The notes under the pieces were generated by a model, which had not been told where the DNA came from, searched no databases, and worked only from the letters and a program-made list of their open reading frames with translations. Positions 16,198 to 54,517 of a stretch of 64,000 nt of DNA are shown here, one piece after another. This DNA comes from Planctomycetota bacterium (GTDB lineage: Bacteria; Planctomycetota; UBA8108; SXIK01), in the NCBI GenBank assembly GCA_965223265.1, contig OZ244999.1:3136001-3200000 (forward strand), written 5' to 3'. The translations under genes were made by a program, and so were the position numbers. Every line of letters starts with the position of its first letter. Position 1 is the first letter of the stretch.

Positions 16198-18672
16198 ATG
16201 AGTCCCGACCGCACACGGTTCGGTATGCGAGCTTGTTCCTCAGCGCCGCGTCTGTTGGCGCTGGATCCGTTGGTCCTGGCCCTTTCGGTTCTTGGGACCA
16301 TGACTTGGGTGTTGTTTCACGGCCCGTCGCTCGCTGCCGGCGAGGCTGTTGACGCCCGGGCGGCGCCGCTGCCGGCGATCGTTTTCGCTGAGCGCGATAC
16401 GATCGCCGCCGACCCCAGCGGCGTCATCACACGGTCGCGCCGAGGGCGTCTGGCCATTCGGGAGCCGGCCCGCGGCGACGTCCGCTATCTTGTCAGTAAC
16501 AGTGCCGGGGTCGGCTCGACTCCGGTCGACGTTACCGATCCCGACGTTTCATACGATGCCGAGCGCGTACTGTTTTCCGGCTATTCGCCCCGTGAACGCG
16601 CGTGGCGCATTTACGAGGTCCGCGTTGATGGCTCCGAGTTGCGTCAGATCACGACATCGGACGGCGACGAATTCAACGTCACGCTCCTCGGTGTCGGCAA
16701 CGCAGCGCTGCAGAGCTTTGACGATCTGGACCCTTGTTACTTGCCCGACGGACGAATCTGCTTTGTGTCGACGCGCTACCCGGCCTTGATTCCGAGTCAG
16801 CGCCAACGCGCAACGAACTTATTCGTCGTCAACCCCGATGGCTCGGATCTTCACCGCATCACCACCGAGCGTTTTGGAGCTGACACTCCGGCGGTCGATC
16901 CGATCAGCGGCAAGATTGTCTACTCGCGTTGGTGGCATTCGTTGCCACTCTCGTCAGTTGCGACCGGCACGACGACGACGGTCACCGACTCGATCCCTCC
17001 CGGCGGCTACTACAACACCGGGCCGCCACCACCACCGCCGCCAAGCGCTCTCTCGGGGGTTACCGAGTCGGCCTTCAGCGGGGTCAACAACTGGTTCCTC
17101 TCCGAGATCAACCCTGACGGTGAGGGATTGCGCATGTTCAGTGGCTTTCGGCTCGACCGACAGGCCTCACAAGCGTGGAAGCCTAGCTTTTTTGAGGACG
17201 GTACGGCCCTCTCGCTCTTTTTGCCCGAGCTTCCGAAGTTCGGCACTCCCGGGCGCAAGGGACTGCGGAAGGTCGAACCCGGCGCCACCGCGCCCGAAGA
17301 GCTTGCCGGCGTGCAGACGTTTCAGGGCGACGCAATTTCCGATTTCGAATACGCGAGCGCGGTGCCACTCGCCGACGGCCGAATCCTGGTAACAGGACGC
17401 TTCTCCAATGACCAGAGCGCGAATCTCTACATTCAGAGCGATCGACGTGCGCTGCCGTCCTTCCTGACAGGACAGCGCAGTTTCGCTGAGATCGATGCCG
17501 TGCCGGTCGTAACGCGCGATACGCCACCCGTGATTGTCGATGAGCTCGAGGATCGTCTAGCCGTGACTTCCGCGCTCGACGTCGAATCCGCCTACGAGCG
17601 TGGCACGTTCAAGTTCGTCGTCGAGAATCTGCATTTCAACGCTCCGGTCGACGTCGACATGCCGCATGCGCCGCCTGTCGGCTTTGGGCTGGCCATCGAG
17701 TTTTACATGGCTCCCCCGCAGGGCGACAGCGCCTCACCGAAGCCGATTCTGATCGAGCGCCGCGACGTCCCGGCCTCCGGCAGAGTTGAGGTGGAGCTCC
17801 CAGCCGGCGTGCCTCTCTTTGAGGTGCTGCGGCGGCCCAACGGCGAGATCGCCAGGGGGCGCGACGGTCAGGTCTATCATGTCGGTGGCATGAATTACGG
17901 TCGTGTGGGGACGCGATCCACGTGCGTCGGTTGCCATATGGGACATTCCATGATGGAGATGCCCGCGGATCCGGAGTGGACCAACTTAGCGACGAGCGCA
18001 GAGCTTGGGCTCCGCTCTCAGGAGAAACTTGTCGACCGCTCCACCGCGGAGGGTAGCACGGCGAGCGCCGGGACTGCATCGCTTGAGTGGCAGGAGCCAA
18101 TCTACGCTCGCGAAGTGGTTCTCTACGCGCCGCGGCCCGGGCCGCTCAACGAGCAGCGCATTTCCGCGGTGATTCTGCGCGCCTGGGATGGAACGCGGCG
18201 CACGGCGATGCTCGATCTGGAGCAAACCATCTCGCCCGAGGGGAGCAGGTTCGAGCTTGCGGCGAGTGACGGCGAACGCGTCCGTCTCGATCGTTTGGAA
18301 GTGATCGTTCCTGACGGCGGTGTTGAAGGAACATACCATGGGCGGGAGAGTCCGGTACTCGCTGAGATCGAGGTGATCGCGCGGGCAACAGGAACGGCGC
18401 GCTTTCGCCGCAGCGATACCAATTGCGATTCGGTCACGGACCTCTCGGATGCGGTGGCGACGCTCACGATGCTATTCGCTGGAAGCGACGACGTTTGTTG
18501 CCTTGAGGCGGCGGACTTCGACGCTGATGAGCGCGTCGATCTCGGCGACGCCGTGGCGCTGCTCAACCATCTCGTCAAAGGTGGACGAGAACCCGCCGAT
18601 CCGTTCGAATCCTGTGGCACCGTCACGAACACCGGTCGCCTCGGCTGCGAGGAGTCCAGGTGCCGTTCATGA
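16198..18672 (+). CDS. Secreted HzsA-related (hydrazine synthase alpha-like) beta-propeller/cytochrome protein with C-terminal dockerin-like module
   Basis: DPDVSYDAERVLFS, FDDLDPCYLPDGRICFVSTR, VEVELPAGVPLF, heme motif CVGCH. C-terminal RFRRSDTNCD...DAV...CLEAADFDADERVDLGDAV. SD GGGGAGAG upstream. Confidence 0.85.
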   Translation: MSPDRTRFGMRACSSAPRLLALDPLVLALSVLGTMTWVLFHGPSLAAGEAVDARAAPLPAIVFAERDTIAADPSGVITRSRRGRLAIREPARGDVRYLVSNSAGVGSTPVDVTDPDVSYDAERVLFSGYSPRERAWRIYEVRVDGSELRQITTSDGDEFNVTLLGVGNAALQSFDDLDPCYLPDGRICFVSTRYPALIPSQRQRATNLFVVNPDGSDLHRITTERFGADTPAVDPISGKIVYSRWWHSLPLSSVATGTTTTVTDSIPPGGYYNTGPPPPPPPSALSGVTESAFSGVNNWFLSEINPDGEGLRMFSGFRLDRQASQAWKPSFFEDGTALSLFLPELPKFGTPGRKGLRKVEPGATAPEELAGVQTFQGDAISDFEYASAVPLADGRILVTGRFSNDQSANLYIQSDRRALPSFLTGQRSFAEIDAVPVVTRDTPPVIVDELEDRLAVTSALDVESAYERGTFKFVVENLHFNAPVDVDMPHAPPVGFGLAIEFYMAPPQGDSASPKPILIERRDVPASGRVEVELPAGVPLFEVLRRPNGEIARGRDGQVYHVGGMNYGRVGTRSTCVGCHMGHSMMEMPADPEWTNLATSAELGLRSQEKLVDRSTAEGSTASAGTASLEWQEPIYAREVVLYAPRPGPLNEQRISAVILRAWDGTRRTAMLDLEQTISPEGSRFELAASDGERVRLDRLEVIVPDGGVEGTYHGRESPVLAEIEVIARATGTARFRRSDTNCDSVTDLSDAVATLTMLFAGSDDVCCLEAADFDADERVDLGDAVALLNHLVKGGREPADPFESCGTVTNTGRLGCEESRCRS

Positions 18673-18690
18673 CGCACAGGGCCGATGTGA

Positions 18691-18719
18691 GACGCATGTG
18701 ATAGCGACGCATGTGATAG
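18691..18719. repeat. Tandem 14-bp direct repeat GACGCATGTGATAG x2
   Basis: Exact copies at 18691-18704 and 18706-18719. Confidence 0.85.
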
Positions 18720-18731
18720 GCCTTGGCCGCC

Positions 18732-18904
18732 CGTCGAAGCGGAGCGGAGGGACTGTCAAGAGCGCGAGGCGCCGAGCGAGCGACGCACTCTTGACAGTCG
18801 CAGTGCGGCTCCGCTCGACGCAGGGGCGCCGAGGCCTGCCTCGCTCCTCCGCTACGACCCGAGCGGGATCGCGCCCGAGTCGCTCCTTGGCCTCGGCGCT
18901 CCTG
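18732..18904. repeat. Two adjacent long hairpins (palindromic intergenic element)
   Basis: Hairpin 1: GACTGTCAAGAG (18751-18762) / CTCTTGACAGTC (18788-18799), with outer arms CGTCGA..GCGGAGC / GCTCCGC-TCGACG. Hairpin 2: CAGGGGCGCCGAGGCC (18821-18836) / GGCCTCGGCGCTCCTG (18889-18904). Confidence 0.75.
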
Positions 18905-18946
18905 GCGCTGGCAGGCTCGACGCGAAATGGCCAAACTCGAGGCTAG

Positions 18947-19078
18947 CAGCCCCGGCCTCTTCACGCCCAGCTCAGCCGCGGCGAGCCTCGATCATCCCGA
19001 AGATTACCTACGTTCGCCGCGGCCGATCTGGACGCGAAACGACCAGTTTTCAGCTCGAAGCACTTTTTCAACGGGCTG
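18947..19078. mobile_element. MITE-like fold-back element, copy 1 (left arm internally deleted)
   Basis: Core CCGGCCTCTTCACGCCCAG...CTGGACGCGAA...CTTTTTCAACGGGCTG shared with the copies at 27031 and 63010. Flanked by CTAG/CTAG. The right CTAG contains the DUF1501 stop codon. Confidence 0.85.
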
Positions 19079-20560
19079 CTAGGCAAGGATTTTGTTGACC
19101 ACGTTACCGCCTACATCCGTGAGGCGAAAGTCGCGGCCTTGGAAGCGATACGTCAAGCGTCGGTGGTCGAAACCAAAGAGGTGCAGCAGCGTTGCGTGGA
19201 AGTCATTTACGTGGATTGGATCGTCGACGACGTTCCAGCCGATCGGGTCCGTGCGGCCGATCACTTGGCCGCCTTTGACGCCGCCACCAGCCATCCACAT
19301 CGAGTAGGCGAACGGGTGGTGGTCACGTCCCGTGTTGTACTTCCGTGAGCCTCGGTTCTCCCCAAGGGGCGTGCGGCCGAACTCCGAACCCCACACGACC
19401 AGAGTGTCATCCAAGAGTCCGCGTGTCTTGAGGTCGCGCAGAAGGGCGGCGATCGGTTGGTCCGCCATCGTCGCGTTGTAGCGCAGCTCAGGGTCCAGAT
19501 TGCTGTGATGATCCCACGACGCATGATAGACGTTGACGAAACGGACACCGCGCTCGACGAGACGTCTCGCCAGCAGGCAGTTGGTGGCGAACGAGCTGAA
19601 CACCCCCTGGCCGCTGCCGCGACCGCGGAGTTTCGGCTCCGGTCGACCGACGCCGTAATCCTCCAGCGTCCTTTGGCTCTCGTTCGACACGTCTATGAGC
19701 TCTGGTGCCGACGACTGCATGCGGAAAGCCAGTTCGTACGAGGCGATGCGGCTCGAGATTTCTGGATCCTGGACGGTCGAGAATCGCTGCCCGTTGAGTG
19801 CCCTAAGTGTGTCGAGACTCCGCCGCTGCACGTCGCGATCAACGCCCTTGGGATTGCCGAGGTTGAGAACCGGATCGCCTTGATTCCGAAACAGTACACC
19901 TGCGTAGGTCGAGGGCATAAAGCCGCTCGTCCAATTGGATGCGCCGCCACTAGTACCGCGACCGGCAGTGAGGACGACGTATCCCGGGAGATTCTCAGAC
20001 TCAGAGCCTAGCCCGTAATTGAGCCACGAGCCGATGCTCGGAAGGCCGAAGCGCGGCACCCCGGTGTTCATCATCAACTGCCCGGGATGATGATTGAACG
20101 CGTCGGTGTGCATGGAGCGGATCAAACAGATGTCGTCGGCGCACGAACCGAGATGGGGCAGCAGATCGGAAAGCTCCATGCCACAGCGACCGTGACGCTG
20201 GAATGTCCGCTTCGTCCCCAAGAGGGTCGCAGTCTCTTTCTGGATGAACGCGAAGCGCACATCTTTCGTCATCGACTCCGGTAGCTGTTTTCCGTGCAGT
20301 CGGTTCAGCTCGGGCTTTGGATCGAAGAGATCTAACTGGCTTGGCGCGCCCGCCATGAAAATGAAGATGCAATTCTTCGCGGTGCCAGCGAAATGGCCGG
20401 CTCGCGGTGCCAGGGGGTCTGTTCGTCCGGCGGGGTCGTTTGCTGCAAGGAGCCCGTCACGCGCTAGGAGTGAGGCCATCGCGACGGTGCCGATGCCGCT
20501 AGCCGACGTGGCGAGAAAACTTCTTCGAGTTGTGTCTACGACGCGTTCGCACGATTCCAT
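19079..20560 (-). CDS. DUF1501 domain protein (Tat-exported, sulfatase-like)
   Basis: TRRSFLA twin-arginine leader, CIFIFMAGAPSQLDLFDPKP, CLLARRLVERGVRFV, WDHH, SEFGRTP, GRDHHP, RLTDVGG. Confidence 0.95.
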   Translation of the reverse strand: MESCERVVDTTRRSFLATSASGIGTVAMASLLARDGLLAANDPAGRTDPLAPRAGHFAGTAKNCIFIFMAGAPSQLDLFDPKPELNRLHGKQLPESMTKDVRFAFIQKETATLLGTKRTFQRHGRCGMELSDLLPHLGSCADDICLIRSMHTDAFNHHPGQLMMNTGVPRFGLPSIGSWLNYGLGSESENLPGYVVLTAGRGTSGGASNWTSGFMPSTYAGVLFRNQGDPVLNLGNPKGVDRDVQRRSLDTLRALNGQRFSTVQDPEISSRIASYELAFRMQSSAPELIDVSNESQRTLEDYGVGRPEPKLRGRGSGQGVFSSFATNCLLARRLVERGVRFVNVYHASWDHHSNLDPELRYNATMADQPIAALLRDLKTRGLLDDTLVVWGSEFGRTPLGENRGSRKYNTGRDHHPFAYSMWMAGGGVKGGQVIGRTDPIGWNVVDDPIHVNDFHATLLHLFGFDHRRLTYRFQGRDFRLTDVGGNVVNKILA

Positions 20561-20618
20561 TCAGTGCTCCCTGCGACACAGGTTTTCTAACAAACTGCCG
20601 GCCGTCATCGAATCACAC

Positions 20619-22910
20619 TCACTCGCCCGAGTCCAGGTGGAATTGCGGCGCTCCGGCGAAGCCGGGCGTCTCGCCTTCGACGACATCTAAGATCTGGTCG
20701 GCGGGAAGGTCACGTAGGAGTTGAGTGTGTCCCGACGGCCAGTGGATCTCCACTTCGTCCACTTGCGCGGCCGTGCCCAACCCATAGTGCAAAGTTCGGC
20801 TTTGACACGAAAGATAGGCGCCGCCGCAGAGTACACTGCGCCACTGATTTGTCCCGGCTGCTTGAACTCGAACTCGCGCGCCGATGGCGTCGCCATGACT
20901 GCGAGTGCCCCGCAGCCGAAGCTGAAGCCAGTGACCTGTGGCGCCACGGCTGATGAGAATCGACGCAGGTTGTGCGTAGTTTTGGATCACGAAATCGAGG
21001 TCGCCGTCGTTGTCGAGGTCGGCGATAGCCAAACCGCGTGCGTCCTCGATGCGGTCAGCAGCGTTGACCCCAGCGACGTCAACGAGTTGGCCACCGTCGT
21101 TACGAAAGAGAGCATTGTTTTCGTAACCGTTGAAGGATTTGTCGCCGACGTGAATGAACGAGCTGACATCGCCGTCAACTATAGAACGCCGACCGACGTT
21201 CTCCAGAAAAGTCGGTCACAAATCATGACGGTCTTTCCCCGAAATGAAGCCGTTAGTTGCGTAGAGATCGAGGTCGCCGTCGTTGTCGTAGTCTAGAAAG
21301 CCAGCGCTCCAGCTCCAGCCGGTATTGTCCGTCCCAGCCGCACTCGCCACGAACGTCCCGTCGCCTTGGTTGCGGTAGAAAACGTTGCCGGACATCATCT
21401 CGTAGACGATGTCGAGGACGTCATTCCGAAACAGCATCGAGACTGGCCAAGGTGCCGGCGCCGGGTATGCGCGCTGGCGAATCATCCAGCGTGAGTTAGA
21501 GGTCATGGCCGCGACGAAGAGGTCTGGATAGCCGTCGTTGTCGAAGTCACCCCACGAAGCGCTCATGCTAGCGCGTCGGGCGGTCAACCCAGCCTCTCGA
21601 GTCACGTCGTCGAACGTGCCGTCGCCGCGATTTCGATAAAGCACATCGAAGCCGAAATCGTTGGCGACGAAGAGATCCACGTCACCGTCGACGTCGAAGT
21701 CCGCCGCCGAGCATGCGAGGCCGAAGCCGGAGTGATCAACGGAGGCCGCAGCTGCAGTCTCGCGAAATGTTCCGTCCGCGTTGCCCATAAAGAGCGCGTT
21801 GGGTGCGGCGTTGAGCGCCTGGTGAGGCGGATCGGGCGAGCACAGAGTCAGATTACAGCCGTTGACGATGAAAATGTCGAGGAATCCGTCGGCGTCGAAG
21901 TCTGCGCTGCAGACGCTCGTTGTGTGGCGTGTTGGGGTTAAGCCGACGTCGGCGGCGACGTCGGTAAAAGTACCGGTTTCGTTTTGGAGATAAAGAATGT
22001 TGGCCCCGTCGAGGCGGCCGACGAAGATGTCTTGGCGGCCATCGTTGTCGAAGTCTGCGATGAGTGCCGATCGCGACTTGCCCGGCAGCAGTGCGTCAAC
22101 GCCGGCCGATTCCGTCGTGTCACGGAACGTGCCGTCTTGCTGATTGAGAAAGAGGCTACAGTGGTCTCCGTTGACGAAGTAAAGGTCGACCCAGCCGTCG
22201 CCGTCGACGTCGCCGACAGCTAGTCCAGACCCCGCGGGGTAACGTTGGAGGCGACCCTGTCGGTCGGCGACGCCGTCGATGGCGGAAAGATTGGAAACGC
22301 CACGTTCGACGGCTTCCTCGGAAAATCGCACCTGGTCTTGAGCCACGATCACTGGCGTCGAGGCGTGCTCGGAGACGATTTTCCATTCGCCCGTCGTGTC
22401 GCGTCTGCAGACGACCGCCAGCGAACTCTCCTGGCACACGTCCCTTCGATCCTTACCCGTCCCACAAAGGCTGAACGAAAGTGTGGCGTGGGCTTCGCCA
22501 TGCCGAATCAGAAGTTCGTCGATCGTCGCTGCCACGCGGCGGACCACTTGAAACTTCTCCAGCAAGGCGCGTTTGCTCTCCTGCCACTCCTGCGTGTCAG
22601 CGAGCTCTTTCGTGTAGAGGCTGCTAATGCCCTCGAGGTCCCGCCGGGCGTGTTCTTGGGGGTAACGACGGTGCAGTAGCTCGTTTAAGGGGTTTACGTA
22701 GTCTCGTTTCGTTCTTTCCCACGAACCACACCCCGCCATGAGAAGAGCGAGGGTGGCGCCGAGCAAAAGTGTTGGCAGTCCGTGCTGCGGCTGAGGTCGA
22801 GCACACCGCGAGGGACTTGAAGCGAAGGGAAGCGAATCGATCACGAAACGAATCGGATGCGGCCTCAACAACGAAGAGCGTTCATCTCCCATCACGAGAT
22901 GGGGGTTCAA
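20619..22910 (-). CDS. CRTAC1/ASPIC-UnbV family FG-GAP lipoprotein interrupted by one in-frame UGA (21216-21218); 763 aa if read through
   Basis: ORFs 21216-22910 and 20619-21032 are in the same frame. The 61 intervening codons are stop-free and translate as family-like sequence (PTFLENV...KSFNGYENNALFRNDGGQLVDVAGVNAADRIEDARG). FG-GAP DxDxDG repeats, ASPIC GAYLSCQSRTLHYGLG...IHWPSG, lipobox-like MAGC. Start uncertain. Confidence 0.85.
21190..21218 (-). promoter_or_regulatory. Stem-loop at the in-frame UGA (candidate SECIS-like or recoding element)
   Basis: The minus-strand RNA reads U-GACCGAC-UUUUC-UGGA-GAAC-GUCGGUC-G. This gives a perfect 7-bp GACCGAC/GUCGGUC stem plus a UUC/GAA upper stem and a UGGA loop. 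The loop is closer to the UGA than in canonical bacterial SECIS elements. Confidence 0.45.
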
Positions 22911-27933: not shown

Positions 27934-30900
27934 ATGAGATACGGGGCACCAGTACGCTTGCGTTTAGCGGTTGCCGCGTGTTTGCTTTGCGCGGTCTTGC
28001 CGATCTCGGTGAGGTCGCAGCTTGCAGCAGGGGAGGTGTATTTCGTCAGCGATGACGCTTACTACCTGATTTGGGCGGTGGACGCAGAGACGGGCGCGGC
28101 GGTGCAGGGACTGAGCGCCCCCGACGATGCGATCCTCGGAGTTTCTCCGCCGCCGAGCTCTGGCCTCGCCTTCGCTGCAGGAGAACTCTACTACACCCAT
28201 GACGCCACCCCGCTTCTATGGGTCTTGGACGCTGAGTCCGGTGATGTGGTGCGCTCGTTTGAGAAACCTGCGACAGACATTTCCGGTCTGACGTTTGCTC
28301 ATGGCGTTCTCTACGCTGCAGCGGAGATCGATTCACAAGGAACTCTCTATGGGCTGGACCCAATCACTGGCGTCGTTCAGTCGACGCTTGCGGTGCCACG
28401 GGCCAGCGGTGCACTTGCGGCGTCGGAGGCGCGTGGGTCGGTCTTTGTGCGCGTCGGTGCACTCGAGGTGCGTGAGATCTCGGCGGCGAACGGCGACGTG
28501 CTCGGTTCGATCGTACCGCCTGTCCCAACGACAGGACTTGCAGTTTCTGAAGACGAAGCGCGGCAGTCGCTCTTGTTTCTCAATGCGTCCGGCGAACTGA
28601 CGACTTACGACCTGTTGGCGGGCACAACGACAGATCCGATGGAGCTCGTCGAGACGGCCGGCAACCGCCTCGTGCGCACCGGAGGGTTGGCGACTGGCAC
28701 GTTGCCGCCACCGACCGAAGGTGGCGAAGGTGGTGGTGTTCCAGTCTCTGGCGCAGCGATTGAGGTTCAAGACACGAACGTTCGCGCCGACCGCACTGCA
28801 TCCGTTCCCATATTGATGACCAATGATCAGGCGCTTCAGGGCTACGTTATTGCTGCCGTGCACGACCCTGCTGTCTTGACGTTGGAGGATGTTTCCTTTG
28901 CGGGCACAGAGACTGAAGCGAATTTTGCCGAGTTCGTTGCAGCTGAGTTGCTCCCCAATGGAGCGACGATCGGCGTGATTTTCGACGTTGACGCTCCCTT
29001 CGAGAACAACGTGCTTCCGCCCGGTGTGGATCAGGTGGTCGCGCGGCTCGCTTACAGCTGCGTCAACCGCGACCCGACGGAGGAAACAAGCACCGAAGTG
29101 CGTCTGGTCGATGGGGTGATTGGTCAACCGGCTAAGGACAATCTGATTGTCGTCGATGGTGTCACTTCGACGCCGGAGTTGTTTCCGGGAACGATTCTGT
29201 GCGTTCTACCTCCGCCACCGTCCACCGAACCGCAGTTCCTTTGCGGCGGACCTCCGGCAGCGGATGGCCTCCCGACGCCGTTGACGGCTGGGCGAGGAGA
29301 AACTGACACGCTCTGCTTTTTCTACGCTTTTCCCAGTGACCGTCCGGCTGGCATTCAGGGACTCTCGATGGCGCTTGCCTACGACTGCCGCCTCGACTGC
29401 TTGGAAGAGACGTTTGGACTTGTGCCTGGCGGAATTGCGGACGTGATCGGTACCGAGTTCGTTGAGTTTCAATGCGATGAAGATCCGACCGATGGAGACG
29501 GCTGCGAAATGATTCTCGCGATGCTCCTCGACTCATCGCCGCCGTTCGACGGACAGACTCTGCCTCCGACATCTATGCCGTTTCCACTCGCCTGTGTGGA
29601 CTTGCGCGTGACGCCTGAAGCCACTGTGGGTGAGTGCCTCGACGTGCGTTTTCAGGACGGAGTGAACGGCGAAAACAAGGTGCCAACGAAAAACCTCGTC
29701 TCCGTCAAGAATGAGGCGATCGCAGCGCTGACGAGCTCCTGTGAAGTGTGCGTTGTGCCGAGCGGCCCGACGCTCTTTTGCGGCTCTGGGGCGCTGGACG
29801 TTCATGGCTTGCCTGGTCCTCTCGTGGGTGAGAACGGCGACGAGGTCGAACTCTTTTTCTGGTACCGTTCTCCGGTGGAGGAAGTGTTTAGTTTGACGCA
29901 AGCGGTGCGGATCGATTGTCGTGCTGCGTGTATCGCTGACACGTTTCTGGCCGACCCAGGCCTGCAGGGGGTCGTGAACCGAGGTGACCTCTCACTCGAG
30001 TGCGATTCGGATCCAGCGGATGGCGACGGATGCGAAATCGTCTTGCGTTTCGAGCGAACCGCAGGCAACCCGTCTCTTCCTGCCACTGACCTTCCAGTTC
30101 GATTAGGACGCGTGCGACTGCGCATCGGAGAGAACATCGCGCGCGGCAAGTGCTTGCCGATTGAGCATCACGACCAGATCGACGGAGAGGGTACGGAGAT
30201 CGTCGACAATCAAGTGATTACACCGTCCGGGATTCTGTCACCGGAGACGGTCGATTGTGAGATCTGCGTGCGCCCTGCACCGCTACCGCGGTTCTTTTGC
30301 GGCGGACCAAACCTCGATCCAGAAACCGGGCTCCCCGAGATTCCATCCGAGGTGCGACTCGGGGAGAGTGTTGAGTTTTCTCTTTGGTATTCGAGTCCCG
30401 ACGACGAGCTTGACATCACAGACCAGATTCAAGGGCTCTCGATGGCAATTCAGTACGATTGCAACCTGATTTGCCAAGAAGATACGTTCACTATCCCTCC
30501 CGACAGCGCGCTCGAGCTTGTCGATGCGGAGTTCGTCTCGTTCGAGTGCGAAAATGATCCGACCGATGGCGACGGGTGCGAAATGCTCTTTGCCGTCTTA
30601 GTCGATCTGAACCCGCCGTTCGATGGTCGCACGCTGCCGCAGAGCGACACACCGCTCAAGCTGGCGTCCGTGACGATGCAGGTAGGGCCCGGCGCGGTAC
30701 TTGGCACGTGCCTTCCGGTGCGCTTTCTCGATGGCGTCGACGGCAAAGGGATTGTTCCCAACAAGAACATTGTTTCGCTGAACAATGAAGGCGTCAGCCC
30801 CGAGACCTTCGATTGCGAAGTTTGCGTCCGGCCCCTCGGACCAACGTTTTTCTGTGGCCCGGAGGATTTCGCCCCGGACGGAATCATCGACCCAGCGCCA

Positions 30901-31737
30901 GGCGACGCCGTGCCTCTCTGTTTCTTCTATTCGTCGCCGACCGACGAGCTGTTTACCGCAATTCAGGGCTTTTCCATGGGCCTTACGTTTGATTGCCGAC
31001 TCACATGTCTTCCAGACACGTTCCGGCTCCCCGAAGACTCGATCCTTTTGGCCCTCGGCGCTGATTTCGTCGACTTTCAGTGCGACAACGATCCAGACGA
31101 TGGTGACGGCTGTGAGATGATCTTTGGCGTGTTGATGGACGCTACGCCACCGTTCGATGGTCAAACCTTGCCGCCAACGGATATCCCGCTCAAACTCGCC
31201 TGCGTCGACATGGTCATCCCGACCGATGCGGTCTGTTTCGAGTGCTTCGACGTCAATTTCGAGGACGGAGTCAACGGCAACAACAAGGTGCCGATCAAGA
31301 ATCAGATCGCCGTGGACAATATGGCATTCTTTGCCCGCACCCAAGACTGCGAGATTTGTGTCGACATGATCGTCGAAGAGAAGACCTTTGTCCGTGGCGA
31401 TTGCAACGGCTCGGCTGGATCCGAGGAAGAACCGGTCAACATTGCCGATGCTGCCAGCGTCGTGTCGCTTCTCTTTGGACTCGACGAATTGAAGCCAGAG
31501 CCAGTTTGCCTCGACGCCTGTGATGCCAACGACGATGGCCGTCTCGAGCTCACCGACACGCTTGCGATTCTTCTCTTTCTTTTCAACGACGGAACGCCAC
31601 CGCCGCCGCCGGGTCCCCACACAGCCGGCTTTGACCCGACGAAGGATGTCATCCCGTGCGGGGACCGGCTGTGTCCGACCGATGGAGACGATGAAACCGC
31701 GGACGGAGCTTCAGGCGAAGGCTCGCCTACTGGTTAG
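27934..31737 (+). CDS. Large secreted scaffoldin-like protein: beta-propeller-like N-domain, cohesin-like domain, four Cys-rich cohesin-like repeats, C-terminal dockerin-like module
   Basis: Signal peptide. Cohesin-like ASVPILMTNDQALQGYVIAAVHDPAVLTL. Four ~170-aa repeats with FCG, IQGxSMxxxYDC, CDxDPxDGDGCE and PPFDGxTLP. C-terminal FVRGDCN...NIADA...CLDACDANDDGRLELTD. Confidence 0.8.
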   Translation: MRYGAPVRLRLAVAACLLCAVLPISVRSQLAAGEVYFVSDDAYYLIWAVDAETGAAVQGLSAPDDAILGVSPPPSSGLAFAAGELYYTHDATPLLWVLDAESGDVVRSFEKPATDISGLTFAHGVLYAAAEIDSQGTLYGLDPITGVVQSTLAVPRASGALAASEARGSVFVRVGALEVREISAANGDVLGSIVPPVPTTGLAVSEDEARQSLLFLNASGELTTYDLLAGTTTDPMELVETAGNRLVRTGGLATGTLPPPTEGGEGGGVPVSGAAIEVQDTNVRADRTASVPILMTNDQALQGYVIAAVHDPAVLTLEDVSFAGTETEANFAEFVAAELLPNGATIGVIFDVDAPFENNVLPPGVDQVVARLAYSCVNRDPTEETSTEVRLVDGVIGQPAKDNLIVVDGVTSTPELFPGTILCVLPPPPSTEPQFLCGGPPAADGLPTPLTAGRGETDTLCFFYAFPSDRPAGIQGLSMALAYDCRLDCLEETFGLVPGGIADVIGTEFVEFQCDEDPTDGDGCEMILAMLLDSSPPFDGQTLPPTSMPFPLACVDLRVTPEATVGECLDVRFQDGVNGENKVPTKNLVSVKNEAIAALTSSCEVCVVPSGPTLFCGSGALDVHGLPGPLVGENGDEVELFFWYRSPVEEVFSLTQAVRIDCRAACIADTFLADPGLQGVVNRGDLSLECDSDPADGDGCEIVLRFERTAGNPSLPATDLPVRLGRVRLRIGENIARGKCLPIEHHDQIDGEGTEIVDNQVITPSGILSPETVDCEICVRPAPLPRFFCGGPNLDPETGLPEIPSEVRLGESVEFSLWYSSPDDELDITDQIQGLSMAIQYDCNLICQEDTFTIPPDSALELVDAEFVSFECENDPTDGDGCEMLFAVLVDLNPPFDGRTLPQSDTPLKLASVTMQVGPGAVLGTCLPVRFLDGVDGKGIVPNKNIVSLNNEGVSPETFDCEVCVRPLGPTFFCGPEDFAPDGIIDPAPGDAVPLCFFYSSPTDELFTAIQGFSMGLTFDCRLTCLPDTFRLPEDSILLALGADFVDFQCDNDPDDGDGCEMIFGVLMDATPPFDGQTLPPTDIPLKLACVDMVIPTDAVCFECFDVNFEDGVNGNNKVPIKNQIAVDNMAFFARTQDCEICVDMIVEEKTFVRGDCNGSAGSEEEPVNIADAASVVSLLFGLDELKPEPVCLDACDANDDGRLELTDTLAILLFLFNDGTPPPPPGPHTAGFDPTKDVIPCGDRLCPTDGDDETADGASGEGSPTG
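29230..31370 (+). repeat. Four tandem intragenic Cys-rich domain repeats (~510-560 bp each)
   Basis: Repeats begin at PQFLCG (~29230), PTLFCG (~29767), PRFFCG (~30286) and PTFFCG (~30841), and each ends in CEVCV/CEICV. Repeat 2 is the most divergent. Confidence 0.88.
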
Positions 31738-46473: not shown

Positions 46474-46534
46474 GACAGAGACCGCCAACTGCTGGCGTCT
46501 CGAAAACTCCCCCGCTATTGCAGGGAGCTCGCTT

Positions 46535-48880
46535 CTACTCGCACGGTGGGAAGCTAGTGCAGCTCAAATCGTCGCTTGTCGGATCGAAGCCGCATTCCGT
46601 AAATGGCGGACCTGGCGCCTCGCCGCTGACGAAGAGGTGGTTGAGGAGGAAGACCGCGGCGGCGAGATCAAGAACGCCGTCGTCGTTGGTGTCTGCCGAC
46701 TTTAGGCAGGACGGTTCCTCGCCGCTGGCGAACAGGTGCTTGAGCGTAAAGATGGGATCGCTGAGGTCAACGACCGCATCGGCGTTGGAATCACCTCGCC
46801 GGAATCTCGTGGTCTGACCACACTGAGCGGCACACTCGGGGTCAGCGCAGTCGACCAGAAGATCACCATCGTCGTCGAAGCCGTTGTCGCAGATCTCGAT
46901 GCTTTCACTCGTGCAAGGGAACTCGGTCAGAGGGCGTTGACGACCATGAAAGATCCAGTCCGGGAAGAACTCAGGGACGCTCGTGATGCGTTCCCCTTCG
47001 ATCTCGAGACCGAGGGAGAAACCCCAAGTGTCGGAGGCGATGGCGGCGTCAGATGCGTTGAAAGTGCCGACGAGAATGCGATGCATGCCAGGGACAATCG
47101 TGGCGTTTGCTGTGTATTCGCAGACCTCGCGGACACCACATTGATTGCGATTGAACACGAGTTGGTCGTCAATCCACACCTGGCCGCCATCGTCGAACGC
47201 CATGCAGAGTCCGATCTCGACGGGGTCGCGACCAGTGTATTCGATGTAGGTAGCGGCAAAGCTGACAGCGCCTTCCGGCTCAAGAAAACCAGGATCGCGC
47301 GTCAGGTCGGTGTCGCCGGTGTCAGGGGTGTCGTCATTGAGAAGACGCCAAAACGGCAATTCGTCCTCGGCGGTCGGACCGATGTAGCCAAACGAAACCG
47401 CCTCGTCCGGCGAGTAGCCGATGCGGTCGCCAAGGCGTGGGTACTGGCATTCGATGCGCGTGGGCGCAACGTAGTTGCGTAGTAGGTCGGAGTCGCGCTC
47501 GCGGCCGTTGCATTGGATGGTCTGAGTGAATGGACCCAGAACGAGCCAATTTTTGGTCGCGATGAAGCCGCTCTCATCGGTGCGCTCGGGGTGGCAGCAG
47601 TCGATTTCGGCGGCTTCGTTCTCGATGCACACTTCGTTGAGTGGCGTCGGTAGGTCCCCGCGAGCGAAAACCGTCGACGTGGTATTCCCCGGGACGGTGC
47701 GAGCGAGATCACCGTTGATGAAAATCGAGAGTACCTGTTCGCTGTCGGCATTGAGGGGGTTGCGCCACTGTAGCTCGATCCCTCCGTCGGGCCGGCGCAG
47801 ACACCGGTCGATCGAAACTGGATCCAGGCGCTTTAGGCGACAGCAATCCGAAAGACCGCTCGCATTCAAGACGCAAAGTTCGAACTCTCCATTTGCAGGA
47901 AGTTCACGGTTTGCCACAACGGCGGTCGTCGCGTCACCTGCCACTGACATCACCTCGCGTTCGTCGATGCGAATCGAGATGCCTTGGTTGGCGGCCGCCC
48001 CATCGGGGTTGCGCCAATTCACCGCGAGGTTGCCGGTGCGCTGCATTTGACAACCTTCTAAGGTGACGGGGAAGACGACACGCGAGCAGTTTGGCTCGAC
48101 GAGACCGTCTGGGCGCGAGATGCCATGGAACGTCCAACCCGGAGTTGAATCAGTGATCGGGACGCCACGGCGACGCAGTCCGAAGGTCACTCCCCAAGAC
48201 TCTCTGCCGCCGATCGATGCCACTGCCACGCGGTGCACTCCAGGAGTTACGCGCATGGCTCTGATGTTTTGACAGAGCTCACGTCGTCGGCACTCGATGT
48301 TGTTCAGTACGAGCTCGCGGTCCCACCAGAGCTGCGCACCGTCGTCGGCGCCAACGCAAAGTTCGACGTCGATCGGCTCGGCTCCAGAGTACTCGACATA
48401 AGTCACGAGCCAACTCACCACGTCGGCACACTGATGGTCCTCACCGCGACCGCATCGATAGCCCGTATCGGCGTTCAGATTGTTGTCGCCGTTGTCGCTG
48501 CCGTCATCGAATTGACGCCAGAGCGGCAAGAAACTGTCACTGAGCGGGCCAATGTACTCGATCGAAGCAGCCTCGAATGGGTCATAGTCTGCTTCGTCAC
48601 CAAGTCGAGGAAAAGCACATGGGATGGCCGTAGGGGCGACAAAGTTCTGCATCAGTGCGTCGGCCGAGTCGCTGCACGCGACCGCATGGCGAAACGGTCC
48701 GAGAACGAGCCATTGACTGGAATGAATCAACCCATCACCGTCGACGACCTGCTGCGCGTTGGCTGGCGGTCCAAAGAATGTGGTCGCACAACCGAGAGCG
48801 ACTGCGATCAGTAGCGTTCGTCGATTCGGCCGCCCCCGGCGTTCGTGCTGCAGCGTCGCTCTCTTCTCTCTTGCTGACAT
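46535..48880 (-). CDS. Secreted Cys-rich protein with two PA14-like modules, two Ig/Fn3-like modules and a C-terminal dockerin-like module
   Basis: Duplicated WLVLGPF...PRLGD...YIGP...DDGxQxWxD...PGxHR units. Duplicated WRNP modules. EICDNGFDDDGDLLVDCADPEC. RFRRGDSNADAVVDLSD. Start uncertain (ORF open to 49012). Confidence 0.8.
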   Translation of the reverse strand: MSAREKRATLQHERRGRPNRRTLLIAVALGCATTFFGPPANAQQVVDGDGLIHSSQWLVLGPFRHAVACSDSADALMQNFVAPTAIPCAFPRLGDEADYDPFEAASIEYIGPLSDSFLPLWRQFDDGSDNGDNNLNADTGYRCGRGEDHQCADVVSWLVTYVEYSGAEPIDVELCVGADDGAQLWWDRELVLNNIECRRRELCQNIRAMRVTPGVHRVAVASIGGRESWGVTFGLRRRGVPITDSTPGWTFHGISRPDGLVEPNCSRVVFPVTLEGCQMQRTGNLAVNWRNPDGAAANQGISIRIDEREVMSVAGDATTAVVANRELPANGEFELCVLNASGLSDCCRLKRLDPVSIDRCLRRPDGGIELQWRNPLNADSEQVLSIFINGDLARTVPGNTTSTVFARGDLPTPLNEVCIENEAAEIDCCHPERTDESGFIATKNWLVLGPFTQTIQCNGRERDSDLLRNYVAPTRIECQYPRLGDRIGYSPDEAVSFGYIGPTAEDELPFWRLLNDDTPDTGDTDLTRDPGFLEPEGAVSFAATYIEYTGRDPVEIGLCMAFDDGGQVWIDDQLVFNRNQCGVREVCEYTANATIVPGMHRILVGTFNASDAAIASDTWGFSLGLEIEGERITSVPEFFPDWIFHGRQRPLTEFPCTSESIEICDNGFDDDGDLLVDCADPECAAQCGQTTRFRRGDSNADAVVDLSDPIFTLKHLFASGEEPSCLKSADTNDDGVLDLAAAVFLLNHLFVSGEAPGPPFTECGFDPTSDDLSCTSFPPCE

Positions 48881-49039: not shown

Positions 49040-52000
49040 CTATGGGCAAAAGCTATCCCCCGTGCAGTCGAGGTCATCCGTCGTTGGATCCGGGCCGCAG
49101 CTGAGCGAGGGTGGTGGCAACCCAGCGTGCCCTGCGAAGAGGTGGAGCAACATCCGCACCGCGTCGGTCACGTTGATGCGGCCGTCGTCATTGGCGTCTA
49201 TAGCTTTAGCGCACAAGGGGGGTGGGGCGGATCGGAAGAGGTAGGAAAGCGTGGTCATCACATCCTCGACCGAGATTTCACCATCGCCGTCGACGTCGCC
49301 GCGTTTGAACTTCGTCTCCGGCATCGAGGTGTCCAGCCCCCTGGAGTAGCTCGACACTACAGCGCCGCCGATGCGAAGAAAGTTTTCGTCAAGATACGTT
49401 ACTTGGGGCTCAATTGCCTCGCGCGGTTCTGGAGCGATGATTTCGACGATCGCGATTCCCTGCGCCGCGGGCAGATCGACGTGGGCAGGTAGATGGATCC
49501 AATAACTGATTCGTTGGTTGTGCCGGAACGCCGAATAGACCAGATCCTGGTAGAGCGTCACGTTTCGTTCAGCGTTCGGCCATCGCAGTGTCGCACTCTC
49601 TAGCGCGGCGATGCCTACATCTTTGTGCGGTTCTGGCTGGAATCGCTCGAGGAGAGAAAACGCACCGTGATCTTCGGTCTCCACCTCGATGCGCCAGAGC
49701 GGCAGTCCTGCAAGGCTGCACGAGGTGTACTGGATCTGTTCAAATGACTCCCCTTCGGTAAGGCTTGCATTCAGTCGCACCTGCCCTGACCTGATGGCTT
49801 CGTTGAGGCTCAAGGCCTCGAGCGCGCTCGAGCCGCCAAGGTCGAACTGAAGACCACTGAGCTCCAGGTCGAGAACGGCCCCGGAGTTCAATGTGAAGCT
49901 TTGATGAAAATCGAAGCGTACCGTTGCCTGACGGTCGCCGGATCCCGCTACGATGACGACATCCGCGAGACCCGGAGACGTGGGCGTCGCGACCTCTTGC
50001 CGCGGTCCGAACTGAACCGCCTCAATGAGGTCGATTTCGAATGCGTTCTCGTCGCTGGGCAGCAGAAACTCGCCGACACGAAAGCGCACGATGCTCTTGA
50101 GTTCGAAATCGCGCCGAGATCCGCGGCCCGTTCCAAAGAGGGCACACATCTCCGCGTCGGGCGCAGCTGTGAGGGTGAACGTGGGTCTTGGGATGGGCGG
50201 TGTTGGCAGAAGGAACGGGCGTACTTGTTTGACTGCCAGCTCCCCCGTTTGCGTCACCTTGAACTCGACTTCAAGAAGAACGTCGCGGCGATCGAACGCT
50301 CCCAGCGCCAACGGGAGGTTTTCGTCAATGTGCGCAAGCAGTGCGCCGAGTTCTCTCAGTTCGTCGTCTGAGAGCACGTGTGCGCCGGGTTCGGCGAGTG
50401 AGGACGAACGCGCTCGGACGATCTCCTCGACAGCGCCGTTTTCGATGCGAAGTAGCGACCGTTCGGTCGTGGTGCCGGGCTCTGGCGTGACGACGCTCTC
50501 CTCGCCGATCTGCGCCACGACCACGAAACGGCGTTCGTTCGTTTGCGTGGGATTGCCGGTCAGGGCGACGCCGTTCGCTCGTTCGTCCGTGAACGCTTTC
50601 GTCGCAAGGATCGCCATTGCGGCTCGGTTCTGCGGCACCGAGAAAAACTCTCGCTCCTCGAAAGCTCGGTAGTTCCATAGACTTGCCCACACTCTCTTCA
50701 AGGCACGGGCGATCCCACGCTCGTTGTCACGTTTGGAATCGCAGAGCGAAGGGCCGCGCGCATCGGAATCGAGGTCGTCCGCAGCGCATGCTGAAGTTGA
50801 GTCGTAAAGCCCCGCGCCGTTGAACTCGAGGGCGTCCTCGACGTTGGACGACGATCGAATACGGATTCGATCGCTCGTGGTTCCAAAGACCTCACCGATG
50901 CGTGTAGCAAGACGGCCGACCAAGTCAGGATCGACGATGCCTTGCTCGTTGGCATGATCCCGAAAGGCCTCGAGTGCACGGAAGCGAAATCCAGGGTCAC
51001 TTTGAAACAGAGCGCTGTTGAAGAGCTCGTCGAGGTAGGACTCATAGGTGACCGTGCGGTTCGGATCGAGGGCGGAAGGCATCAAGTTCGTCCGCATGAA
51101 CTCGACGTAGTATCGAAGCGGAACAGAGAATCCCGGCGCACGATAGCGGCTGTATTGACCGCTGAGGATCGATTGCAGCCTCGAAAAGTGGGAAGCCTTA
51201 CCGCCGAAGCGGCTTTCGGAAGCGTTCGGCCCCTCGAGGATGTCGTCGGCCGCGATCGCCAGGAGATCAGGCAGGTCCCCGAACGTAAAGTCGACGTTCG
51301 GCTCCAAGGACAGCCGCGGACGACTCGCCTGCCAAAATGCATCTGCCTCCTGAAAAGTGGCGATTTCGACGGTGAATCCGGAGAGCGTGACGTCGAGGCG
51401 TACAAGCTCGCCTTCGAATTCGATGAATCGCGCCGACGCAGCTTCGACAAACGCGTTGGGAGTCCCACGGCGTGCGGTCCGTACCGCCAAGTGACTCAAT
51501 TCGGTCTGGGGCTCCTGCGTGATCACGCCGCCGACGACGCCTTCGATGTCGCGCGGCGCCTCTTCCAACACGAGGATGTCCTGAAAGCTGAAGCGGCCGT
51601 TCTCGTTCAGAGCAGCGAAGCTTTCCGCATCGAGACGTCGAACGCGCCCGAACGTGGCCCCGGTCGTGTAGGCTTCGAATCGTCCAGTTTCGATCTGGTG
51701 TTCGAAGTCGATCGGAAATGGCGCTGACGTCCACTGACGTGCGACTGCGATGGCCGCAGCGTTCGTCGGCGCGTAAACGAGCGGCTCGAGTTCGAAGGCA
51801 TCGCTAAGCCGCGTGAAGATTGCCGTCATCTCCTCAAGCGTCAGCGCCTCGATCGACGAAAAATCGGCGAAGACGTTGAAGCCGAAGGTCGTCTCGCCGT
51901 CGCGAGTGAACCGTGTAATGCTGCCGACGAAGTAGTCGCGTGTCGCCCGACGACCGACGAGACGATCGTACTCCTCGACGCCGAGTGCCGGGAAACGCTC

Positions 52001-54517: not shown

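Follow-up and report, generated by a model that had tools for sequence, protein, structure and literature searches.

The tails shared by five proteins, and the tandem repeats of one of them, in a 64,000-nucleotide window of a Planctomycetota genome (the whole stretch of DNA that was analysed) are probably the two halves of a genome-wide, non-cellulolytic cohesin-dockerin docking system. The tails would be dockerins of a lineage-specific, cysteine-containing subtype and the repeats of protein P0002 cohesins too divergent for Pfam, and it is as one joint reading that we consider these statements likely. The evidence consists of the folds of the modules, matches of the module profiles to solved cohesins and dockerins, genome-wide counts, the phyletic co-distribution of the two modules and the kinds of cargo involved.

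All five ORFs of the initial annotation were confirmed at their positions (Table 1), as was the claim that they end in one similar module, with the last ~90-120 residues aligning as a homologous ~90-aa module. The description of all five as secreted stands for four, P0002 among them, on the sole basis of an N-terminal hydrophobic segment in a Kyte-Doolittle scan, which detected none in the fifth. P0001 has two paralogues in the genome (a family of three), P0003 is a member of an 18-paralogue family and P0005 belongs to a 59-member paralogue cluster. Pfam matches were obtained for P0003 (CotH 8.6e-50, LTD 1.5e-10, Dockerin_1 32.5 bits for the whole protein and 36.1 bits for the tail alone) and P0005 (FG-GAP_3 1.2e-70, PPDK_N 1.4e-11). 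P0004 adjoins P0005 on the same strand, lying downstream of the P0005 stop after a 27-nt gap, and scores 33.2 bits with the NCBIfam family acid_disulf_rpt, under its cut-off of 41. Two earlier labels were abandoned, 'HzsA-like' for P0001 (NCBIfam hydrazine_alpha 18.5 bits against a cut-off of 800) and 'PA14-like' for P0004, neither repeat of which matches any Pfam family at E <= 1.

Table 1. Proteins and modules of the putative docking system encoded in the window (positions are those of the window).
Feature	Position	Strand	Description and evidence
P0001, 824 aa	16198..18672	+	Exported, unassigned family; one CxxCH motif; weak propeller-like matches; C-terminal dockerin-like module
P0001 dockerin-like module	about 18388-18669	+	Dockerin_1 12.7 bits, under cut-off; lineage tail HMM 1.8e-37 (tail is a seed)
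P0002, 1267 aa	27934..31737	+	Scaffoldin-like: signal-peptide-like N-terminus, beta-propeller, five cohesins, own dockerin
P0002 N-terminal hydrophobic segment and PQQ_2/BamB-like beta-propeller	27934..28746	+	PF13360 28.2 bits (cut-off 27.6), piece scanned alone
P0002 cohesin-like module 1 (divergent, Cys-poor type)	28747..29217	+	Recovered by HMMs whose seeds come from other proteins encoded in the genome; member of profile A5
P0002 cohesin-like module 2 (Cys-rich type)	29218..29757	+	Folded module: AF2 pLDDT 94.6, pTM 0.90
P0002 cohesin-like module 3 (Cys-rich type)	29758..30273	+	33% identity to module 2; HMM domain E 3.3e-71 (seed of the model)
P0002 cohesin-like module 4 (Cys-rich type)	30274..30831	+	49% identity to module 2; cohesin HMM match
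P0002 cohesin-like module 5 (Cys-rich type)	30832..31365	+	53% identity to module 2; cohesin HMM match
P0002 dockerin-like module	31372..31734 (core about 31384-31680)	+	Dockerin_1 12.6 bits; loop 1 insertion; acidic C-terminal extension
P0003, 951 aa	41554..44409	-	LTD, CHB_HEX_C/Fn3_assoc, CotH kinase and dockerin; tail about 41557-41850
P0004, 825 aa	46535..49012	-	Two ~215-aa repeats of unassigned family, two shorter repeats, acidic double-disulfide repeat, dockerin
P0004 dockerin tail	about 46538-46822	-	Dockerin_1 16.6 bits
P0005, 1825 aa	49040..54517	-	FG-GAP/VCBS propellers, PPDK_N-type ATP-grasp ('dikinase-like'), dockerin
P0005 dockerin tail	about 49043-49330	-	Dockerin_1 33.1 bits; folded tail

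Type I dockerins (Pfam PF00404) are built of two tandem segments of ~22 residues, each comprising an EF-hand-like calcium loop, D-x-[DN]-x-D...D, and then a helix. In alignments every window tail (5/5) follows this pattern with two Asp/Asn-rich loop-plus-helix repeats. Identity to the first sequence is 27-44% and 10 columns do not vary; loop 1 of the P0002 tail is interrupted by a 5-residue insertion and the P0003 tail lacks the conserved CG...DPT segment. Dockerin_1 is the sole Pfam family for four tails and the top match for the fifth, lying over the curated cut-off (22.9 bits) in two (36.1 and 33.1 bits) and under it in three (16.6, 12.7 and 12.6 bits); across the genome, 150 candidates were scored and gave 137 matches at E <= 0.01, mostly over the cut-off. 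The window tails match a lineage tail HMM, which all five seeded, at 1e-32 to 1e-42, and at the level of sequence the similarity among tail modules is far beyond chance. A profile of 25 tails matches solved dockerins, best the CelS dockerin (1daq/2mte, 6.5e-6), and no NCBIfam family, sorting-signal families included, matches the tail or the cohesin repeat.

The dockerin fold proposed for the tails was borne out by a model of the P0005 tail, the one tail folded (pLDDT 81), which has the three-helix architecture of dockerins. With Foldseek, ranks 1-33 were all dockerins (rmsd 1.4-3.5 A), with TM-scores on the target of 0.53-0.85 among the matches listed, and with VIA-align against 48,161 chains ranks 1-15 were all dockerins with Z from 10.6 to 3.2, the top match (Z 10.6) having an rmsd of 1.7 A over 67 residues and unrelated chains reaching Z <= 2.5. 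These matches cover residues 4-73 of the model, leaving a Cys-containing extension with no counterpart in solved dockerins. Each window tail holds 4-6 cysteines, rather than the 3-4 originally counted, and an alignment of 25 tails from the genome shows three invariant Cys columns and a fourth conserved to at least 90%, with one of these cysteines lying between the two calcium loops and three in the ~25-residue C-terminal extension. The conserved cysteines probably form disulfides that clasp the dockerin module; this clasp is something we infer, the tail model being of low confidence over its last ~25 residues.

In a tree of the 346 dockerin modules of the genome, the P0002 tail groups only with the tails of four paralogous Cys-rich-cohesin proteins (support 0.92), and the tails of cohesin proteins fall partly (19 of 47) into four small exclusive clades. 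A separate scaffoldin-type dockerin specificity was considered and rejected since the clades mirror whole-protein paralogy, and for the same reason the P0002 clade does not count as independent support for a binding specificity of its own. The motifs 'GDCN' and 'DACD' were likewise rejected as marks of cohesin proteins, counts showing neither to be exclusive to them.

The five repeats first noted in P0002 proved to be real tandem units of ~175 aa, one divergent (28747-29217) followed by four Cys-rich ones (29218-31365) that share a conserved D-x-D-P-x-D-G-D-G-C-E loop. None of the five matches any Pfam family, Cohesin (PF00963) included, even at E <= 10. The model of module 2, the sole repeat folded, adopts the cohesin beta-sandwich, in keeping with the jelly-roll initially predicted, and gave 92 matches in the PDB at E <= 1e-3 with Foldseek; all of the matches listed are cohesins (types I, II and III), the best being 4ums at 1e-7, with TM <= 0.77 on the target. 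For modules 1 and 3-5 the cohesin assignment is by alignment (24-53% identity). With a profile of 24 modules (A5) that includes all five from P0002, the first 21 matches are solved cohesins (3l8q best, 3.5e-9). Other members of the same iterated cohesin family exceed the Pfam Cohesin cut-off in 4 of 40 sampled ORFs and at 3 places genome-wide. About 20 full-length homologues of P0002 (44-50% identity) all bear the name 'hypothetical protein' and lack a precomputed Pfam Cohesin match. Neither a CBM nor an SLH domain was found in P0002 with Pfam.

The 346 dockerin modules lie on 328 ORFs, about one ORF per 28 kb, being at the C-terminus in 264 ORFs, near the N-terminus in 50, internal in 2 and present in multiple (2-3) copies in 12; the C-terminal modules end a few residues past the last conserved Cys. 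The same genome encodes 71 cohesin-like modules on 40 ORFs, of which P0002 is the only one with five, and 39 of the 40 also bear a dockerin, with 32 of the 71 cohesins having one within the next 15 residues. The cohesin count derives from a self-iterated HMM which converged on the same set from three different seeds, with some drift possible. Leaving N-terminal segments aside, the most strongly hydrophobic segment among the 40 belongs to the sole cohesin ORF without a dockerin, at its C-terminus (residues 402-431, mean Kyte-Doolittle 2.59).

Both modules occur in 41/41 relatives of the same Planctomycetota class, so that tails in relatives devoid of cohesin-like proteins, the pattern named beforehand as counting against the proposal, were absent within the class. 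In a phylum sample of 151 genomes (7 of the class and 144 outside it), the cohesin-like profile matched 7/7 of the class (at least 25 matches each) against 4/144 outside (one match each), and the tail profile 7/7 (at least 33 matches) against 22/144, mostly with 1-4 weak matches. As kin are not independent, the class-wide co-occurrence represents essentially one evolutionary event, and a correlation of cohesin and dockerin copy number across relatives was rejected as evidence since, in addition, both scale with genome size. G052, a genome outside the class, yielded no cohesin-like match and 23 tail-like ones (best 9.5e-7); this is the pattern named beforehand, albeit from weak matches.

FG-GAP/dikinase-like proteins (59 paralogues) and CotH kinases (30 + 18) make up the dominant part of the cargo. 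In agreement with the claim that it includes no recognisable glycoside hydrolase (GH), no GH domain, of cellulase type or otherwise, was found in 45 dockerin proteins scanned with Pfam, which by cluster membership stand for 189 of the 328 ORFs. The only GH5 match in the genome lies in an ORF without a dockerin, and GH9 and GH10 have no match in the genome; the blank result for GH48 is uninformative as a control likewise gave no match. Among the 45 proteins scanned S8 and S11 peptidases are present, and M12B and M14 peptidases absent. HYR and TSP3 domains are found among the proteins involved besides LTD, which was seen on CotH cargo (P0003 and L047) and in none of the cohesin ORFs scanned.

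In the mechanism we propose, about 328 exported proteins would carry a dockerin tag, mostly at the C-terminus, some after the signal peptide and a few with several tags, and would plug, in a calcium-dependent manner, into the 71 cohesins on 40 scaffold proteins. P0002, the largest scaffold, might bind as many as five tagged proteins while hanging by its own dockerin on another cohesin. As 39 of the 40 cohesin proteins are dockerin-bearing, scaffolds may chain or form networks, and the dockerin-less cohesin protein with its C-terminal hydrophobic segment is a candidate membrane root, predicted to anchor the assembly. A bolder picture, possible but held tentatively, is that the whole class runs the largest cohesin-dockerin system so far known by dockerin count, a lattice that would be self-chaining because almost every scaffoldin is itself dockerin-tagged. 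From a single membrane-anchored cohesin root it would display outside the cytoplasm hundreds of exported proteins with disulfide-clasped dockerins, among them dozens of CotH kinases and phospho-histidine dikinase-like enzymes that use ATP, with most of the cohesins invisible to current domain databases.

The five proteins were at first viewed as one dedicated local complex encoded in 40 kb, a reading that now appears highly improbable. It would account for five tagged genes falling within 38.3 kb against a genome mean of 1.37 (Poisson P = 0.013, for a window picked by the reader beforehand and uncorrected for that selection), for the presence among them of the only 5-cohesin scaffoldin in the genome and for the adjoining genes P0004 and P0005. 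At least five dockerin ORFs are, however, reached in 3.3% of sliding 38.3-kb windows, the maximum being 7, and the clustering is unremarkable. The five genes lie on both strands, interspersed with unrelated genes (DUF1501, short-chain dehydrogenase, gluconolactonase-like, xylose-isomerase-like TIM barrel, spermidine-synthase-like, Kdo kinase, actin/MreB-like and enolase-superfamily), three of the four cargo proteins have paralogues dispersed through the genome (families of 59, 18 and 3 members), and all are part of a genome-wide set of 328 dockerin and 40 cohesin ORFs. The window is an ordinary stretch of the genome in which the biggest scaffoldin and four cargo genes happen to lie. Improbable too is the alternative offered initially, in which the tail would be a lineage-specific signal at the C-terminus, for sorting or anchoring, read by a dedicated export or processing machine. 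The position of the module at the very C-terminus in 264 of the 328 ORFs, ending just past the last conserved Cys, would suit such a signal, as would the Cys-containing extension unmatched in solved dockerins. It is disfavoured by the 50 ORFs with the module near the N-terminus, the 12 with 2-3 copies and the 2 with an internal one, by the folded, dockerin-type calcium-loop nature of the module, which has no trailing hydrophobic helix, and by the lack of any match to the NCBIfam sorting-signal families.

A third reading dispenses with the cohesins, the dockerin-like module serving as a general calcium-dependent tag for envelope retention or adhesion on a surface glycan, peptidoglycan or another receptor, and the cohesin-like domains being ordinary beta-sandwich spacers that lie beside it by chance. 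Peer et al. are reported to have described in 2009 dockerin-like modules without cohesin partners in many organisms, which agrees with this reading. So do the 346 dockerin against 71 cohesin-like modules, the tail-like matches of G052 unaccompanied by cohesins, and the tagging of 39 of the 40 cohesin proteins, as might be expected of any exported protein of this genome. Yet both modules have expanded together, almost only in one class, the match to the cohesin fold is specific in that every listed match is a cohesin, and the ~5:1 dockerin excess is comparable to that in the cellulosome from Bacteroides (Pseudobacteroides) cellulosolvens as far as its published outline shows (PMC5590126), so that we regard a tag independent of cohesins as unlikely. 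Docking of the tails into cohesins is the reading retained in what follows.

Compared with the clostridial and ruminococcal type I cellulosome pairs (PF00963/PF00404; 1ohz, 4dh2, 5nrk), the modelled modules share the dockerin fold and the cohesin beta-sandwich, and there is likewise a multi-cohesin scaffoldin bearing its own dockerin and a number of dockerin ORFs far exceeding that of cohesins. In contrast to those systems, no cellulase cargo was found here and the scaffoldin gave no CBM match, four Cys are conserved in the dockerin, which also has a C-terminal extension of ~25 residues, the four Cys-rich cohesins of P0002 carry the D-x-D-P-x-D-G-D-G-C-E loop, nearly all cohesin proteins (39/40) are dockerin-bearing and the host is a diderm planctomycete rather than a Gram-positive. 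Dockerin-borne plant-cell-wall GHs, one criterion for a cellulosome, are lacking among the 45 dockerin proteins scanned. Another is a scaffoldin that combines several cohesins with a CBM and an SLH or sortase anchor; P0002 has the cohesins, gave no CBM or SLH match, and for an anchor the TM-like cohesin protein encoded elsewhere in the genome is a lead. Two non-cellulosomal examples are among the structural matches, the Archaeoglobus fulgidus cohesin 2xdh (module 2, 4.1e-6) and the Clostridium perfringens NagH/NagJ pair 2ozn (P0005 tail model, VIA-align Z 4.7), indicating that the cohesin/dockerin pair is used outside cellulose degradation; those systems comprise single pairs or few copies per genome, unlike the hundreds of tagged proteins here.

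The closest precedent is the planctosome hypothesized for freshwater Nemodlikiaceae, modelled, in the sections of that paper available, with one LTD-anchored cohesin protein, one adaptor and M12B/M14 peptidases (Andrei et al., 2019; PMC6461901). As outlined in those sections, it resembles the present system in having planctomycete cohesins and dockerins unlinked to cellulose degradation, a dockerin-plus-cohesin adaptor and Lamin-tail (LTD), HYR and TSP3 domains among its proteins. It differs, on the same outline, in being a small complex as opposed to the 328 dockerin ORFs and 71 cohesin modules here, in having LTD on the cohesin protein and not on CotH-kinase cargo, and in its peptidases, the dominant cargo here being dikinase-like and CotH proteins with M12B/M14 absent from the 45 scanned (PMC6461901). 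We would class the docking system as a large variant of this non-cellulosomal planctosome idea. In scale it is comparable to the cellulosome of B. cellulosolvens, described in the accessible part of its report as the most intricate known, whose 31 scaffoldins bear 78 cohesins and which has more than 200 dockerin ORFs (Zhivin et al., 2017; PMC5590126); the corresponding figures here are 71 cohesin-like modules, spread over 40 ORFs, and 328 dockerin ORFs. That system is cellulolytic, with interactions verified, according to the same part of the report, using 43 cohesins and 27 dockerins, whereas the present one is described from sequence and models and has non-cellulolytic cargo (PMC5590126). 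In the literature on the planctosome and on non-cellulosomal or planctomycete cohesin-dockerin systems, mostly as represented by titles and abstract openings, no Planctomycetota system of such scale appears; the PVC bacterium Limihaloglobus sulfuriphilus is termed merely 'scaffoldin-containing' in the part of the text available (Minor et al., 2024; PMC11557425).

To our knowledge, nearly all that is known of cohesin-dockerin assembly comes from cellulose-degrading Firmicutes. If tails and repeats do pair, a diderm planctomycete lineage would organise a large exported set (328 ORFs) by plug-and-socket, with cargo unrelated to plant cell walls, and the small planctosome proposal would grow into a proteome-scale system. 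Protein engineering would also gain a new dockerin type containing disulfides and a Cys-rich type of cohesin, and there would be a concrete handle on the site and work of the exported CotH kinases and dikinase-like enzymes that are puzzling in these bacteria. Censuses based on Pfam badly undercount cohesins in this lineage, where 3 places exceed the cut-off against 71 modules detected by the lineage profile.

The dockerin-like tails and cohesin-like repeats of the window probably belong to a cellulosome-like, non-cellulolytic docking system of dockerin-tagged exported proteins and cohesin scaffolds. The five ORFs named in the initial annotation are all present where it had placed them (Table), and they can be aligned over the C-terminal ~90-120 residues (10 invariant columns; identity to the first sequence 27-44%), each tail containing two Asp/Asn-rich loop-plus-helix segments in keeping with the shared module that had been described. 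The tails carry 4-6 Cys and not the 3-4 originally counted. Aligning 25 tails of this genome showed four conserved Cys columns, three of them invariant and one at least 90% conserved; one conserved Cys lies between the loops and three within a ~25-residue extension beyond the second helix, and these residues may form a disulfide clasp. The intramolecular "clasps" of some dockerins, described in a 2025 review (PMC12484212), would be a non-covalent analogue. Pfam Dockerin_1 was the sole family match for four tails and the top match for the fifth, scoring over the curated cut-off of 22.9 bits in two (36.1 and 33.1 bits) and under it in three (16.6, 12.7, and 12.6 bits), while NCBIfam gave no match for the tail or the P0002 repeat. 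The P0005 tail, the only one folded, was modeled using an alignment with 24 other tails (pLDDT 81), its three helices being well defined and its final ~25 residues poorly so. Foldseek returned dockerins throughout ranks 1-33 with zero matches at E <= 1e-3, and VIA-align, a Foldseek-independent search of 48,161 chains, placed dockerins at ranks 1-15 (best Z 10.6, rmsd 1.7 A across 67 residues) with unrelated rows at Z <= 2.5. By sequence comparison, too, the tail profile matched dockerins of solved structure (CelS dockerin, 6.5e-6), some EF-hand proteins ranking among them. The dockerin reading is thus right for the modeled P0005 tail and extends to the other four by alignment.

Table. Coordinates of the features discussed (window positions unless prefixed C1, the whole-genome contig).
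Feature	Position	Strand	Description
Upstream haem-protein genes	2627-16029		DUF7133 + cytochrome c, PSCyt1 + WD40, PSCyt2 + PSD1
P0001	16198-18672	+	tagged
P0001, haem-c motif region	16198-18387	+	single CxxCH
DUF1501 gene	19082-20560		
P0002	27934-31737	+	1267 aa, tagged, five cohesin-like repeats
P0002, Cys-rich cohesins	29218-31365	+	four repeats
P0003	41554-44409	-	tagged, CotH
P0004	46535-49012	-	tagged
P0004 interior	46913-48760	-	repeats: two of ~215 aa, two shorter of ~90 aa
P0005	49040-54517	-	tagged, dikinase-like
Dockerin-less cohesin ORF	C1:572938-574461	+	507 aa stop-to-stop, one cohesin
Tagged LTD + CotH ORF	C1:3216123-3220571		
Alternating protein, first	C1:7641935-7644073		Doc-Coh-Doc-Coh-Doc
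Alternating protein, second	C1:7766053-7768962		Doc-Coh-Doc-Coh-Doc

P0002, in which five cohesin-like domains had been noted, has one divergent and four Cys-rich repeats in tandem, each 157-186 residues long, and 0/5 match a Pfam family when the threshold is relaxed to E <= 10. Repeat 2, the sole repeat folded, was aligned with 30 related modules, drawn partly from P0002 itself and partly from the genomes of relatives, and gave an all-beta model (pLDDT 94.6, pTM 0.90) with 92 Foldseek matches in the PDB at E <= 1e-3; among the matches listed there were only cohesins, of types I, II, and III together with the non-cellulosomal Archaeoglobus cohesin (best 4ums, 1e-7; TM scores on the target up to 0.77). 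By sequence alone, a profile into which 24 cohesin-like modules of this genome were combined, the five of P0002 among them, had solved cohesins as its top 21 rows (best 3l8q, 3.5e-9). The cohesin assignment therefore holds for repeat 2 on the basis of its model and for the remaining repeats by alignment. The four Cys-rich cohesins share a near-invariant acidic loop, D-x-D-P-x-D-G-D-G-C-E, with Cys on its flanks, which resembles an additional Ca-binding or disulfide-bonded insertion and is not known from classical cohesins. The N-terminus of P0002 matches a PQQ_2-type propeller (28.2 bits, cut-off 27.6). Among the 24 homologues of P0002, about 20 are full-length proteins sharing 44-50% identity with it; every named one is a "hypothetical protein", and none has a precomputed Cohesin match. 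The public gene call of 1233 aa falls 34 residues below the ATG-started ORF, and because a signal-peptide-like N-terminus would be lost from the shorter form, the start at ATG 27934 seems preferable.

An HMM of the P0002 repeats matched seven ORFs, the six other than P0002 all ending in a tail, and cohesin HMMs iterated from three different seed domains out of those proteins converged on one set, 40 ORFs that together hold 71 cohesin-like modules (one module in 17 ORFs, two in 18, three in three, four in one, and five in P0002 alone). Pfam Cohesin scored over its cut-off in 4/40 sampled tagged ORFs (25.1-32.5 bits), all four within the converged set, which lends support to the iterated family. 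Genome-wide it matched just seven places, three over cut-off, and the cohesins are missed by public annotation as well. A dockerin is also present in 39/40 cohesin ORFs, and for 32/71 cohesins it lies no more than 15 residues downstream. Tagged, apparently exported proteins would plug Ca-dependently into the cohesins of such scaffolds, with P0002 as an adaptor scaffoldin offering five sockets, a propeller, and a plug of its own; with a tag on nearly all the scaffolds themselves, these might chain or form networks. Two proteins in which three dockerins alternate with two cohesins could form head-to-tail polymers or bind themselves. The sole dockerin-less cohesin ORF has a hydrophobic stretch towards the C-terminus (mean Kyte-Doolittle 2.59 over residues 402-431), the strongest non-N-terminal one among the 40 cohesin ORFs, and is therefore a lead, as a candidate, for the membrane anchor of the system.

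An HMM built from the five window tails matched, at E <= 1e-3, 338 of the 85,974 stop-to-stop ORFs (60 aa or longer) in the genome (one contig, 9,179,496 bp), leaving 328 ORFs with 346 modules once the domain had to span 40 or more model positions; among 150 candidates scored, 137 matched Pfam Dockerin_1. The initial annotation had proposed one complex encoded in 40 kb. This did not survive the census, as tags occur genome-wide and the five genes are split by unrelated ones on both strands: DUF1501, short-chain dehydrogenase, gluconolactonase-like, xylose-isomerase-like TIM barrel, spermidine-synthase-like, alcohol dehydrogenase, Kdo kinase, actin/MreB-like, and enolase-superfamily genes. The only adjacent tagged pair is P0004/P0005 (gap 27 nt). 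Tagged ORFs average 1.37 per 38.3 kb (maximum 7), and 3.3% of sliding windows hold five or more, the number found here being exactly five. A dedicated local complex is accordingly hardly credible, and the window is a sample of a genome-wide system with no standing as a locus in its own right. The module is C-terminal in 264/328 tagged ORFs, as a C-terminal sorting signal would be, but it lies no more than 220 residues into the ORF in 50, is internal in two, and occurs in two or three copies in 12; the N-terminal and multi-copy placements speak against a sorting signal, which we regard as very improbable.

It is somewhat less improbable, though still unlikely, that the tag has some binding partner other than cohesins, a question on which the distribution of the two modules bears. 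Cohesin-like proteins were found to accompany tails in relatives, both modules occurring in 41/41 same-class genomes sampled from six families (counting no more than 121 tail matches in any one genome), and six genomes of the same order have a P0002 orthologue whose open frame runs to about 1266-1353 aa. Across 151 evenly drawn genomes of the phylum with a completeness of 80% or more, the cohesin-like profile matched 7/7 of the class (at least 25 matches each) versus 4/144 outside it (one apiece), and the tail profile 7/7 (at least 33 matches) versus 22/144, most of the latter with 1-4 matches at much weaker E-values. One genome outside the class (G052) has 23 tail matches (best 9.5e-7) and zero cohesin matches. 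With both modules throughout the class and few or weak matches beyond it, tail and cohesin have co-expanded within one class, and this co-expansion is a single evolutionary event and no set of independent ones.

The feature noted in the window is real and is a very large new form of a known kind. The closest published idea is the planctosome of Nemodlikiaceae, proposed to be a small complex that bears peptidases and has a cohesin protein anchored through LTD (PMC6461901). In scale the set found in this genome resembles the most intricate cellulosome known, that of B. cellulosolvens with its 78 cohesins on 31 scaffoldins and >200 dockerin ORFs (PMC5590126), but differs from that cellulosome in its cargo, Cys-containing dockerin, Cys-rich cohesin, and near-universal dockerin on scaffoldins. 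In the excerpted part of a 2024 cellulosome-genome survey, a single PVC bacterium is named, and that as marginally "scaffoldin-containing" (PMC11557425).

The 328 tagged ORFs, clustered with tails masked, fell into 175 clusters, 145 of them singletons. The largest, the P0005 family of 59 ORFs (median 1819 aa), combines FG-GAP propellers with a PPDK_N-type ATP-grasp, and 38 tagged ORFs measure 1780-1930 aa; it is odd for a protein that is apparently exported to carry an ATP-using enzyme. A 30-ORF LTD + CotH cluster (including L047, the tagged CotH ORF in the Table) and the 18-ORF CotH family of P0003 both have N-terminal lamin-tail domains, making 48 exported CotH-like proteins. A Pfam scan of 20 representatives of clusters and 20 singletons picked at random, which with the five window proteins (45) stand for 189/328 tagged ORFs by cluster membership, found glucose/sorbosone dehydrogenase, metallophosphoesterase, SGL, subtilase S8 with NHL/PKD, S11 peptidase with FG-GAP, di-haem peroxidase, beta-helix, PD40, laminin-G/F5-8C, CHRD, PKD, TSP3, HYR, VWA, Lcl_C, and SdrD_B, with no Pfam match for 12/40. 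None of the 40 has a recognisable glycoside hydrolase, in agreement with the initial annotation; genome-wide, GH5 matched once, in an ORF without dockerin, and GH9 and GH10 not at all. Two of its names fared less well. The repeats of the "PA14-like" P0004 have no Pfam match at E <= 1, an acidic double-disulfide repeat directly ahead of the dockerin scoring 33.2 bits, under the cut-off of 41, and the "HzsA-like" P0001 shows only a trace of hydrazine synthase alpha similarity (18.5 bits against a cut-off of 800). P0001 has a single haem-c motif and two paralogues in the genome. In keeping with a Planctomycetota origin, the genes upstream of it encode typical planctomycete exported haem and "PSCyt/PSD" proteins.
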